Source: an uncultured Klebsiella sp. (GTDB lineage Bacteria; Pseudomonadota; Gammaproteobacteria; Ga0077536). From it: a stretch of DNA of 64,000 bases. Where the stretch lies: contig CAZKRY010000015.1 in the NCBI GenBank assembly GCA_964555355.1, positions 52,455 through 116,454 on the forward strand, written 5' to 3'. The notes under the pieces are model-generated. The model was not told the DNA's origin. It saw only the letters and a program-made list of their open reading frames with translations, and made no database searches. Made by a program: the position numbers and the translations under genes. Numbering within the stretch: position 1 is the first letter of the stretch; the number at the start of each line of letters is the position of its first letter. Below, in pieces: positions 21,877 through 24,104 of this stretch.

Positions 21877-23145
21877 ATGAAACTTAGCACAGATAACCCC
21901 GTCGCCAAAATTACCGAAATTACGAGGTGCCGAATTGGTGGGAGTAAGCATTTAGTTTCCGTGCTGAACCTGGGGGAGCAGTACCTCACCGGAATATTCC
22001 CGAAAGATCCGGCGCAAGCCATTACCAAGGGCCCGCTCGATCTTGTGTGGTGCCCAGACAGCGGCCTGCTTCAGTTGCGCCATTCCTATGATTTGTCGGA
22101 AATGTACGGTGAGAATTATGGATATCGCTCGGGCCTTAACGCCTCAATGGTTAACCATTTACAGCACAAGGTACGAGGTCTATTGCGGAGAGTGCCGCTT
22201 GGTGCTGGAGATTGGGTGCTCGATATCGGGAGTAACGACGGCACGCTGCTAAAAACTTATGCCGACTTAAATATTCGACGTGTCGGCATCGATCCCACCG
22301 CGCGCAAGTTTATGGAGTTCTATCCGAAAGAAATTTCAGTCATTCCCGAATTTTTTACGGCTAATCGATTTCTGGAAGCGTCAGGTCAGCGCAAAGCAAA
22401 AATAATTACGTCAATCGCTATGTTTTACGACCTGGAAGATCCGAATATCTTTGTCTCCGACATCCAAAAGTGCCTCGCGCCGGACGGTGTATGGCATTTC
22501 GAGCAGAGCTACATGCCGTCGATGTTACGCACCAACGCGTACGATACCGTTTGTCATGAACATCTCGAGTATTACTCATTACGCGTAATTAAAGATTTAC
22601 TCGCGAAGCATGCTCTGAAGATTGTTGATGTGCAGATGAATGCGGTTAACGGTGGCAGTGTTGCGGTGACTGCCTGCAGGAAAGATTCCGCGTTATTCAA
22701 AACAGAAACCATCGTGGATTGGTTGTTGTATCAGGAAGAGAATTGGGGACTCGATTCGCCCAAGCCGTACCGACAGTTTGAAGAGAGAGTATTCAAACAT
22801 CGAACCGATTTGCAGAAGCTAATCAAGCTACTCGTCCAAAGCGGGAAAAAGGTATTGGGCTATGGCGCTTCTACCAAGGGAAATGTACTCCTCCAGTTTT
22901 GTAATTTCGGGCCCGAGGAGATACCGGCGATAGCAGAAGTCAATCCCGACAAGTTTGGGGCGCACACGCCCGGAACGCTAATTCCGATCGTATCCGAGGC
23001 AGACGCGAAAGCAATGAATCCCGATTACTTCCTCGTACTACCATGGCACTTCAAGAGCGGCATCATCGATAGAGAAAAGGAATTTTTATCACGTGGTGGA
23101 AAGCTCATTTTCCCGTTACCGGAAATAGAAATCGTAGGCGACTAA
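21877..23145 (+). CDS. NDP-sugar C-methyltransferase (TylCIII/TcaB9-like architecture)
   Basis: N-terminal degenerate Zn-finger-like region, VLDIGSNDGTLL SAM motif, CHEHLEYYS, NGGS, C-terminal domain GYGASTKGNVLL...KFGAHTPGTLIPI...LVLPWHF. Start moved to ATG 21877. Confidence 0.85.
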   Translation: MKLSTDNPVAKITEITRCRIGGSKHLVSVLNLGEQYLTGIFPKDPAQAITKGPLDLVWCPDSGLLQLRHSYDLSEMYGENYGYRSGLNASMVNHLQHKVRGLLRRVPLGAGDWVLDIGSNDGTLLKTYADLNIRRVGIDPTARKFMEFYPKEISVIPEFFTANRFLEASGQRKAKIITSIAMFYDLEDPNIFVSDIQKCLAPDGVWHFEQSYMPSMLRTNAYDTVCHEHLEYYSLRVIKDLLAKHALKIVDVQMNAVNGGSVAVTACRKDSALFKTETIVDWLLYQEENWGLDSPKPYRQFEERVFKHRTDLQKLIKLLVQSGKKVLGYGASTKGNVLLQFCNFGPEEIPAIAEVNPDKFGAHTPGTLIPIVSEADAKAMNPDYFLVLPWHFKSGIIDREKEFLSRGGKLIFPLPEIEIVGD

Positions 23146-24104
23146 TGCCGACAGCGATTATCGTTGGGCACACCGGTCAAGATGGGCAATTTCTATGGGA
23201 GCAGCTTAGTGCCTCGAATTACTCACTAGTAGGAATTTCGTCGACTAAGGTGGCAAGCCATCGCCTCGCATGGGATGAGCCTGTGGAAATTCGTGATGCA
23301 GGGTCGGTTAGCCGACTAATTGCCGAAATACGGCCCGAGCAAGTTTATTTTCTTGCCGCGCATCACCATAGCGCGCAAGAGGGCGCGAGCAGCGGCGAAG
23401 AAGCGCTGCTACAAGGCACCTTGGTGAACGCGAATTCTTTTTTGAATTTTATGGCGGCCTGTGTCACGCATATGCCGACTTGCCGCCTCTTCTATGCCTC
23501 CTCTTCAAGAATTTATGGCGATCTGGCGAGCGGCGTTCAAAACGAATTATCCCCCCGTGCGCCAACCTGCCCATACGGACTTTCAAAACTCATGGGAATG
23601 CAGTTTGCAGACTATTACAGGCGACGCAAGCAGCTCTTTGTTTCGTGCGGGATACTGTTCAATCATGAATCGAGGCGACGGGGCCGACTTTATGTTTCGC
23701 AGCGTATCGTCAACGAGCTACTCGAAATAAAGTTAGGAGAGCGACAGTATCTTGAACTCGGGAATTTAAGCGCTGCGGTAGATTGGGGTTTCGCGGCCGA
23801 TTACACGAGAGCGATGCGGTCGATACTGGAAGCTGATGCACCGGACGACTACGTAATTGCCACCGGCCAGACTCGCACCATATTAGACATGGTACGCAGC
23901 GCGGCGGAATTGATGGGGATAGATCCCTCCAAGTGTGTCCGTGAGACACCTTCATTGCTCAAGCGGAATTCCCAACTTATTGTCGGCGACATCGCCAAAA
24001 TACGTGCGAGGACAGGCTGGACGCCGGTTACGTCTTTTGACGAGATGATGGAGGATATCGTTCGCGGTGCATTTCTTAGCCGGGGCGTGATCTACCAAGG
24101 GTAA
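23145..24104 (+). CDS. GDP-mannose 4,6-dehydratase-fold SDR with altered active site (probable reductase or epimerase)
   Basis: GHTGQDG, YGLSK, CGILFNHES, LGNL..VDWG, DDYVIATG are GMD-family motifs, but ASSSE is ASSSR. Overlaps the upstream stop codon. Confidence 0.78.
   Translation: MPTAIIVGHTGQDGQFLWEQLSASNYSLVGISSTKVASHRLAWDEPVEIRDAGSVSRLIAEIRPEQVYFLAAHHHSAQEGASSGEEALLQGTLVNANSFLNFMAACVTHMPTCRLFYASSSRIYGDLASGVQNELSPRAPTCPYGLSKLMGMQFADYYRRRKQLFVSCGILFNHESRRRGRLYVSQRIVNELLEIKLGERQYLELGNLSAAVDWGFAADYTRAMRSILEADAPDDYVIATGQTRTILDMVRSAAELMGIDPSKCVRETPSLLKRNSQLIVGDIAKIRARTGWTPVTSFDEMMEDIVRGAFLSRGVIYQG

Follow-up and report, generated by a model that had tools for sequence, protein, structure and literature searches.

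What does an enzyme built on the fold of GDP-mannose 4,6-dehydratase (GMD) do once the glutamate that serves dehydration is gone? The question is raised by a gene of contig CAZKRY010000015.1, assigned to an uncultured Klebsiella sp., of which we analyzed a stretch of 64,000 nucleotides (the window). The gene encodes an extended short-chain dehydrogenase/reductase (SDR) of the GMD fold, with an arginine at the glutamate site, and is coupled to the gene of a putative sugar C-methyltransferase (C-MT). A first, sequence-only reading of the locus had taken the SDR for a repurposed 4-ketoreductase or epimerase. This view appears well supported by the clade-wide loss of the glutamate, the adjacency of the C-MT, the presence of gmd nearby in related loci and the occurrence of RMD-family reductases in the same slot. 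More specifically, we propose that the SDR is a GMD-derived 4-ketoreductase of GDP-4-keto-6-deoxy-3-C-methylhexoses, an assignment to which we give roughly six chances in ten. We infer the substrate, the reaction and the stereochemistry of the product, and the 4-ketoreduction from gene context only; the sequence does not separate a reductase from an epimerase/reductase or from other redox roles. The features on which the argument turns are the following:

21877..23145, + strand: NDP-hexose 3-C-methyltransferase of the TcaB9/MtmC/TylC3 type (422 aa from ATG 21877; alternative start TTG 21835)
23145..24104, + strand: GMD-fold extended SDR without the dehydration Glu, putative 4-ketoreductase (319 aa, read from the open reading frame, ORF)
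23166..23186, + strand: dinucleotide-binding GxxGxxG (GHTGQDG, residues 8-14; ORF read and family alignment)
23361..23369, + strand: His73-His74-His75 in LAAHHHSAQ, canonical form LAAQSFV (clade-discriminating columns)
23508..23510, + strand: AGA codon of Arg122, at the site of the GMD catalytic Glu (direct read and alignment to 1rpn)
23574..23588, + strand: Y144-x3-K148 (Y144-G-L-S-K148), the SDR triad with Ser120/121 (read and alignments)
23772..23789, + strand: A-A-V-D-W-G, residues 210-215, canonical form A-K-R-D-W-G (read and alignment)

The SDR and its missing glutamate

In GMD, a tyrosine oxidizes C4 with NADP+, and a glutamate, the base specific to dehydration, removes the proton of C5 and expels the hydroxyl of C6 (PMC2792337, PMC3584063). 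Direct reading of the DNA places Arg122 of the window SDR in the context F-Y-A-S-S-S-R-I-Y-G, and a HMMER alignment (E 9e-49) to the GMD of Pseudomonas aeruginosa (PDB 1rpn), its best PDB match, sets this residue opposite the Glu of A-S-T-S-E. This glutamate corresponds to Glu135 of the E. coli enzyme and Glu157 of the human one, and as a base it deprotonates C5 and brings about the dehydration at C6. The same alignment sets AAVDWG opposite AKRDWG and pairs S120/S121, Y144 and K148 of the window SDR with T126, Y150 and K154 of 1rpn; the NHES..R motif is also present. The sequence-only reading had pointed out that GxxGxxG and YxxxK are kept, that the glutamate motif has become ASSSR through an AGA codon differing from GAA at two positions, and that the SDR start overlaps the C-MT stop. 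The DNA bears out each of these statements, the last in the form of a TAATG in which the TAA of the C-MT and the ATG of the SDR share a single A. Its further remark that the conserved KRDWG has turned into AVDWG stands for the window, where AAVDWG is read, but requires refinement: AAVDWG is specific to the window, and the family consensus is A-R-V-D-W-G.

The arginine is not a read error, as had been argued from the codon. Two unrelated metagenome runs in Logan (X1, from a sand filter, and X2, from a bioreactor) hold contigs that match the 2,228 bases of the C-MT/SDR pair with no differences, and a variant in biofilter run X4 shows 10 substitutions in the SDR, eight of them synonymous and two conservative (L256F, M257I), with codon 122 untouched. 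The AGA codon is hence the same in three independent assemblies; the SDR ORF is intact in all three, and SSSR occupies the glutamate site in 119 of the 120 best homologues. These data rule out a read error and show the Glu-to-Arg change to be genuine and maintained by selection, and the strain comparison, with eight of ten changes synonymous, argues that the window SDR is still under purifying selection.

In fold and domain content, the SDR is GMD-like. Pfam GDP_Man_Dehyd (PF16363) recognizes it with 205 bits, and a Foldseek search with its AlphaFold2 model (pLDDT 93.4) returns GMD structures in the first 31 places (TM-score 0.84-0.88), with RMD 2pk3 at rank 32. In sequence, the SDR reaches 2pk3 at E 2e-13 and is not a close member of the RMD family (2pk3, 6x3b). 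The sole low-confidence stretch of the model, residues 71-90, adjoins or covers the His73-His75 motif. That annotation pipelines would call such genes gmd is confirmed by public records, in which the homologues are named 'GDP-mannose 4,6-dehydratase' (NCBI, UniRef, JGI), yet the window SDR scores 173.2 bits with the gmd equivalog model TIGR01472, below its cut-off of 415.

A search of 5.8 billion proteins gave 7,072 GMD-like matches, of which the 120 nearest clusters at 90% identity form the homologue set analyzed here; its members were compared column by column with 77 canonical, Glu-bearing GMDs. Glutamate occupies the site in all 77 (Glu-bearing matches across all sampled loci number 111), and at 21 columns each group is fixed for a residue of its own. 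Among them are E122R, S74H, F75H, V76S, Y116F and Q117Y, as well as H152M, K187R, R212V, W225Q, F254A and P274R, and at the level of motifs AAQSFV gives way to AAHHHS, YQ to FY and RDWG to VDWG; R212V thus discriminates the clade, while R211A is found in the window only. His74 is invariant in the Arg family. Common to the family and the GMDs are G8/G11/G14, S121, Y144, K148, N173-H-E-S176, R179 and D213-W-G215, with G8, G11, G14, Y144 and K148 invariant in a 27-sequence family alignment and the last two conserved in at least 90% of both groups.

A profile search of genomes with the family alignment, whose listed matches were mostly canonical GMDs and were used as outgroup, also revealed the His and Leu variants. 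At the glutamate site, the residue of sister subclades is His (in Nocardia, Elusimicrobia and others), Leu (in cyanobacteria, Polynucleobacter and others) or Gln, and all four forms have in common the signatures FYA(S/A)SS-, LAA(H/Y)H-SS(Q/E) and VDWG(Y), with which the window SDR agrees (FYASSSR, LAAHHHSAQ, AAVDWGF). Since these signatures are shared, the common denominator of the subclades is the absence of an acid together with a remodeled pocket, and not arginine itself, and remodeling at about 20 shared positions points to a new function rather than to decay. In a neighbor-joining tree, the Glu-less sequences lie outside the clade of all canonical GMDs, short and long forms alike, and the window SDR is the earliest branch of the Arg subclade. 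The canonical clade is recovered in 72 of 100 bootstrap replicates and is the only split relied on, because bootstrap support is otherwise weak and the topology suggestive; in these terms, the tree suggests that the Glu-less SDRs are a sister group outside the canonical GMDs.

Might the protein nonetheless be a GDP-mannose 4,6-dehydratase that employs another base, such as His74? CDP-glucose 4,6-dehydratase has Asp/Lys in place of Asp/Glu, the closest relatives of the window SDR in both sequence and fold are all GMDs, the window contains no other gmd, and the name is the one that public records use. Even so, we consider a residual dehydratase very improbable. The invariant glutamate of the canonical enzymes is the established dehydration base (PMC2792337, PMC3584063), the score lies far under the curated cut-off, and Arg, His, Leu and Gln share no chemistry; in addition, the second gmd present in L010, L098, L180 and L183 (labels beginning with L denote sampled loci) would be redundant.

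The methyltransferase partner and the proposed pathway

Enzymes of the TcaB9/TylC3 type place a methyl group on C3 of NDP-4-keto-6-deoxyhexoses, and completion of the sugar then falls to a 4-ketoreductase. The C-MT of the window follows the three-domain plan of these enzymes, with a zinc-ribbon N-domain, a class I S-adenosylmethionine (SAM) methyltransferase and a C-terminal Methyltransf_14 domain (Pfam Methyltransf_13 PF08421, Methyltransf_23 PF13489 and Methyltransf_14 PF08484), and it matches MtmC (4rv9, E 6e-59) and TcaB9 (E 7e-46) over its full length. Its SAM motif I, VLDIGSNDG, aligns with VEIGCNDG of TcaB9, and the catalytic Glu-His is kept (HEH), with CHEHLEYY aligning with YDEHFFLF of TcaB9, whose active-site pair is E224/H225. 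The four-cysteine zinc site, on the other hand, is reduced to two cysteines (CRIGGS...WCPDSG; 21925-22080, residues 17-68). Every C-MT that partners the Arg clade shows this two-cysteine loss, whereas CRICG...C..CG is kept in the more distant C-MTs of L006, L010, L067, L098 and L104.

The neighborhood of the Arg form was examined in 19 distinct genomes or contigs, the window included; the set holds Rhodanobacter thiooxydans, R. denitrificans, R. umsongensis, Rudaea, Thiobacillus, Nevskia, two Enterobacteriaceae metagenome-assembled genomes (MAGs), Planctomycetaceae, Bryobacteraceae, Terriglobia and four metagenome contigs. A degenerate DNA pattern for FYASSSR was used on genomes and drew eight unrelated loci as well. 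None of the loci that it drew was the window's own gene, and a contig index queried for the exact window protein had no entry for it. The co-occurrence of the Glu-to-Arg change with the methyltransferase, raised by the sequence-only reading, extends well beyond the window: a TcaB9-type C-MT adjoins the SDR on the same strand in 18 of the 19 genomes and lies 3 kb off in the other, and the association spans Gammaproteobacteria, Planctomycetota, Acidobacteriota and others, the paired genes of relatives showing mostly the same 1-nt overlap of stop and start.

Two irregular copies were encountered in these searches. P0106, a protein of 509 aa that combines Methyltransf_14 and SDR parts, was considered as a natural C-MT::SDR (Rosetta-stone) fusion and rejected, since its junction is out of frame and thus reflects a frameshift. 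In a Planctomycetaceae locus (L107, 4837-5763), the SDR is frameshifted across the catalytic region.

In five lineages, the C-MT and a Glu-less SDR share their cluster with a Glu-bearing gmd of 50-68% identity to a 369-aa reference GMD, adjacent in all but L121:

Nocardia, L010: gmd, C-MT, SDR(His)
Bryobacteraceae, L098: C-MT, SDR(Arg), gmd
L121: C-MT and SDR(Leu), with gmd about 1.2 kb further downstream
L180: gmd, C-MT, SDR(Gln)
L183: C-MT, SDR, gmd

A genuine gmd is also located 3-4 kb away in six pilin islands (L001, L004, L109-L112), and a canonical gmd shares the operon or island in at least 11 loci. With a genuine gmd in the same cluster, the non-Glu enzyme of these five lineages is not the dehydratase, and for an SDR that stands beside a real gmd and a C-MT and has no dehydration base, the simplest role would be to handle the methylated 4-keto product.

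The reverse view, taken from the C-MT, leads to a similar picture. The C-MT was scanned against 185,579 species genomes, which gave at least about 600 stretches and at least 595 confirmed relatives, its orthologues in more than 595 species showing 57-74% identity, and neighbors were counted in the best 80 of these relatives (56-73% identity, many phyla):

about 13 loci: Glu-less GMD-like gene directly adjoining the C-MT
about 7 loci: more divergent SDR directly downstream of the C-MT
about 16 loci: canonical gmd near the C-MT, usually with an RMD-family gene
about 45 loci: no SDR within 6 kb of the C-MT

C-MTs without the non-Glu GMD-like gene often have gmd and an RMD-family reductase at their side, and in Mesorhizobium, Rhodopila and several further loci an RMD-family gene takes the equivalent slot beside the C-MT. 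The gene order of Mesorhizobium sp. ORS3359 (L018) is manC-gmd-RMD-C-MT-wzm-wzt, and the RMD (10926-11960) belongs to the true RMD family (2pk3 E 6e-51; 25% identity to the window SDR). It has no acid at the position of the GMD glutamate (GSGLVYG, as against GSSEEYG in 2pk3), but RMD-like genes beside the C-MT elsewhere carry Asn, Asp, Gln or Glu there, and hence loss of the acid is not general to C-MT-linked RMDs. Neighbors such as manC, gmd and RMD suggest that this C-MT subfamily works in GDP-mannose-derived pathways, in which a 4-ketoreductase is the expected third enzyme and the Glu-less GMD-like clade and RMD would be alternative fillers of one slot. A third SDR type, of about 290 aa and with the motifs GSA[M/L/V]QF, NH(D/E)S and KEF(N/T), lies directly downstream of the C-MT (about 7230-8130) in L124, L125, L130, L139, L147, L171 and L183, and is probably another reductase solution.

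Put together, the pathway would run as follows. The coupled TcaB9-type C-MT would transfer the SAM methyl onto C3 through a 3,4-enolate, as suggested by its homology to dTDP-sugar enzymes. The Arg122 SDR, which keeps the GMD fold, the NAD(P) motif, the Ser-Tyr-Lys triad, NHES..R and DWG and has lost the Glu of the C5 proton and C6 hydroxyl, would then reduce the 4-keto group with NAD(P)H by means of its intact Tyr/Lys/Ser triad, and might epimerize the sugar as well; of the two halves of GMD chemistry, the clade would in this way have given up the elimination and retained the redox part. The outcome would be a GDP-6-deoxy-3-C-methylhexose that is stable and resembles evalose or virenose in type. 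The glycosyltransferases, flippase and TPR membrane proteins of the surrounding island would incorporate this sugar into a glycan, the probable carrier of which is the neighboring type IV pilin. A 4-reductase side activity is documented in three characterized GMDs, that of P. aeruginosa included (PMC3584063; bioRxiv 10.1101/854612), and the product type is plausible, since 3-C-methyl-D-rhamnose (evalose) occurs in the O-antigens of Azorhizobium and Burkholderia andropogonis (PMC7203242). Our literature search turned up no account of a Glu-less GMD paralogue that is coupled to a C-MT and no characterized GDP-sugar C-methyltransferase, and we found no curated family model for such a paralogue.

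The remodeled pocket also admits an unlikely alternative, in which the SDR is an epimerase or epimerase/reductase whose His74/His75 provide the acid/base catalysis for an inversion at C3 or C5, with reduction perhaps left to an Fcl-like enzyme. In GDP-fucose synthase, Cys109/His179 form the epimerization acid/base pair; the histidines have been gained across the whole clade where GMD has AAQSFV, and the invariant His74 may be a new ligand or an acid/base for epimerization. Known C-methyl sugar pathways often place an epimerase between methylation and reduction, and an Fcl-like gene co-occurs with the pair in the six pilin islands, whereas the island of the window has neither gmd nor fcl. Under such a scheme, however, the many loci in which no Fcl-like gene accompanies the pair (the window, L002, L089 and L010 among them) would be missing their reductase, and a Ser-Tyr-Lys triad and NAD(P) motif that are fully retained are what one expects of a redox enzyme.

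A further alternative, if anything slightly less probable, does away with gmd altogether. The SDR would be a hydrogen-borrowing C4 oxidoreductase that oxidizes GDP-mannose with bound NADP+, lets the C-MT methylate the product and re-reduces it to GDP-3-C-methyl-mannose. This would suit loci such as the window, L002 and L007/L114 (in the latter two, no gmd lies within 10 kb); GMD ancestry implies a tightly bound and recycled cofactor, and translational coupling with the C-MT is well suited to the hand-over of an intermediate. The sugar itself is natural, 3-C-methyl-D-mannose being present in some H. pylori O-antigens, and our literature search found no pathway for it (PMC12961483). Set against this are the canonical gmd of at least 11 operons or islands, the replacement of the SDR by RMD-type reductases of 6-deoxy-4-keto sugars beside the same C-MT, and the scarcity of precedents for a 4-keto intermediate that is released and recaptured by an NADPH-holding enzyme. 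The more general idea of a gmd-independent two-enzyme route to non-deoxy C-branched sugars (e.g. 3-C-methyl-D-mannose), serving here the type IV pilin, we regard as doubtful to a somewhat greater degree.

Several observations weigh against the 4-ketoreductase assignment itself. There is no canonical gmd or other GMD-like gene in the island or in the whole 64-kb window, and in the Rhodanobacter-type islands the Fcl-like epimerase/reductase could in principle perform the final step. About half of the sampled C-MT loci have no SDR within 6 kb, and the same is true of the closest C-MT orthologue among the matches listed (73%; Nevskia soli MAG, L113, 6001-7269). This proportion rules out an obligatory two-gene module and suggests a one-way dependence, in which the SDR clade needs the C-MT and not the reverse. 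Exact monophyly of the non-Glu clade is obtained in only 22 of 100 bootstrap replicates, its position being shifted by a distant Fcl root and long branches, and arginine itself may have no specific catalytic role, given that Arg, His, Leu or Gln is tolerated across the subclades. Lastly, the window SDR is the most divergent member of its family. It departs from the family at 24 of the 106 conserved columns, where the median is 4 (W88L, H95N, G191E, R211A, H244R and NHESRRRG are among the deviations), its median identity to other members is 44.6% (family, 55.2%) and its nearest relative stands at 48%, where 78% is typical.

Such divergence, with several family-conserved residues gone, together with the frameshifted copy in L107 and the frameshift fusion P0106, might indicate a dead or decaying paralogue that persists as a structural partner of the C-MT, or a window copy drifting toward loss. 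We give little credence to either version. The between-strain substitutions are predominantly synonymous, the ORF is intact in the three assemblies, the cofactor and triad residues are all conserved and the AlphaFold2 model is confident; a pseudogene proper is ruled out by the eight synonymous substitutions in ten and the conservation of the motifs. As a separate observation, the window SDR evolves much faster than its C-MT partner, their identities to Rhodanobacter being 46% and 74%. The C-MT of L113, for its part, sits in a similar setting of methyltransferase, Wzx and glycosyltransferase genes.

The pilin-linked island

The C-MT and the SDR lie in a low-GC island of about 10.8-25.4 kb (GC about 0.50, versus 0.59; it is back to 0.57-0.59 after 24 kb), whose other genes and left flank are as follows:

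7807-10770: pilS/pilR, before the island
11048..11485, + strand: type IVa major pilin at the island head (N-terminus; NCBIfam prepilin-type N-terminal domain)
11639-13615 and 13628-15547, + strand: two polytopic membrane paralogues of about 650 aa, TPR-like at the C-terminus, candidate pilin glycosyl-/oligosaccharyl-transferases
15636-16580, - strand: glycosyltransferase of family 2 (GT2) with membrane tail, polyprenol-phosphate type (Pfam, NCBIfam)
16880-18007, + strand: glycosyltransferase of family 4 (GT4; Pfam, NCBIfam)
18031-19098, - strand: GT2 (Pfam, NCBIfam)
19040-20035, - strand: SAM methyltransferase (Pfam, NCBIfam)
20089-21597, - strand: Wzx-type flippase (Pfam, NCBIfam)
24156..25403, - strand: GT4 closing the island (Pfam), with suhB next at 25411

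From this gene content, the region 10800-25400 looks like a pilin O-glycosylation island, and the same set of genes surrounds the pair of C-MT and SDR in Rhodanobacteraceae, where it is found between pilBCD and the pilins (L001, L004, L109-L112). The two membrane/TPR paralogues share 27% identity with each other (E 3e-53) and are homologous to a pair of about 660 aa in the Rhodanobacter pilin islands (E 5e-50); Pfam finds in them a weak TPR_19 only, and no NCBIfam model matches. They recall in architecture only the pilin arabinosyl/oligosaccharyl-transferase TfpW (bioRxiv 10.1101/2020.04.19.049825), and by this analogy a TfpW-like role seems plausible. The ORFs of the second GT2 and of the SAM methyltransferase overlap by 59 nt, and the TTG start of the former is probably placed too far upstream. 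In L001 (12399-13310), L004 and L109-L112, a protein of about 303 aa without Pfam match lies between Wzx and the fcl-like gene; it is absent from the window.

Relation to known systems and meaning of the clade

Compared with canonical GMD (EC 4.2.1.47; 1rpn, 1db3, 1n7g, 6gpj), the Glu-less clade has the same fold and a length like that of the short bacterial GMDs, and it shares about 32-45% identity with the P. aeruginosa enzyme, with GxxGxxG, Ser/Thr-Tyr-Lys, NHESxxRG and DWG in common. What sets it apart is the presence of Arg, His, Leu or Gln in place of Glu, the change of KRDWG into RVDWG, the C-MT neighbor and, often, a real gmd alongside. RMD catalyzes the type of reaction proposed for the clade, an NAD(P)H-dependent reduction of a GDP-4-keto-6-deoxyhexose, but it is distant from the window SDR (E 2e-13, 22% identity), and the Glu-less clade accordingly appears to have been recruited independently, from the GMD side. 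The bifunctional GMDs of P. aeruginosa, A. thermoaerophilus and PBCV-1 show that a GMD active site can pass hydride to C4 of its 4-keto-6-deoxy product (PMC3584063; bioRxiv 10.1101/854612). Those enzymes keep the Glu and dehydrate, whereas the Glu-less clade appears to keep the redox half only.

The pathways of TylC3, EryBIII, TcaB9, KijD1 and MtmC follow the same logic of 4,6-dehydratase, C3-methyltransferase, optional epimerase and 4-ketoreductase, and the window C-MT has the fold and domain order of the TylC3/TcaB9/MtmC enzymes. These antibiotic pathways, however, use dTDP sugars and RmlD-like or other ketoreductases, while the manC, gmd, RMD and Fcl neighbors of the C-MT relatives studied here point to GDP sugars for surface glycans, and half of the zinc site is lost. 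For virenose in Coxiella, the pathway proposals that we found are in silico only (PMC3539893, PMC13552124). The GDP-virenose scheme for Coxiella burnetii, also in silico, comprises gmd (CBU_0689), a TylCIII-like gene (CBU_0691) and an Fcl-like gene (CBU_0688) (PMC3539893). It resembles the present case in deriving a 6-deoxy-3-C-methylhexose from GDP-mannose by gmd, C-MT and SDR, and the Rhodanobacter-type islands likewise hold gmd and an Fcl-like gene; it differs in giving the last step to an Fcl-type epimerase/reductase and not to a Glu-less GMD paralogue. The link to Coxiella and virenose is only an analogy.

The proposed 4-ketoreduction is ordinary as chemistry; what is new is the recruitment of the GMD scaffold and its systematic misannotation. 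Many records named 'GDP-mannose 4,6-dehydratase' lack the defining residue, including the 120 closest clusters and the His, Leu and Gln forms, and the combination of FYAxSS[R/H/L], AAHHxSS and VDWGY with C-MT adjacency would allow curators to separate the clade. To our knowledge, the last step of any GDP-linked C-branched deoxysugar has no experimentally assigned enzyme, be it evalose in rhizobial and Burkholderia O-antigens or virenose in Coxiella. The Glu-less clade and the RMD alternative are concrete candidates for that step, and the Nocardia operon of L010 (gmd, C-MT, SDR) is one that can be reconstituted. If the 4-ketoreductase assignment is true, it would offer a clean case of a dehydratase turned reductase, in which one half-reaction has been deleted from a scaffold with latent reductase activity. 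More generally, the presence of the pair in a conserved pilin-linked island of Rhodanobacteraceae and of a sand-filter gammaproteobacterium suggests that these bacteria may bear pili decorated with a methyl-branched deoxysugar, and glycans on pilins are known to influence how phages adsorb (bioRxiv 10.1101/150227).

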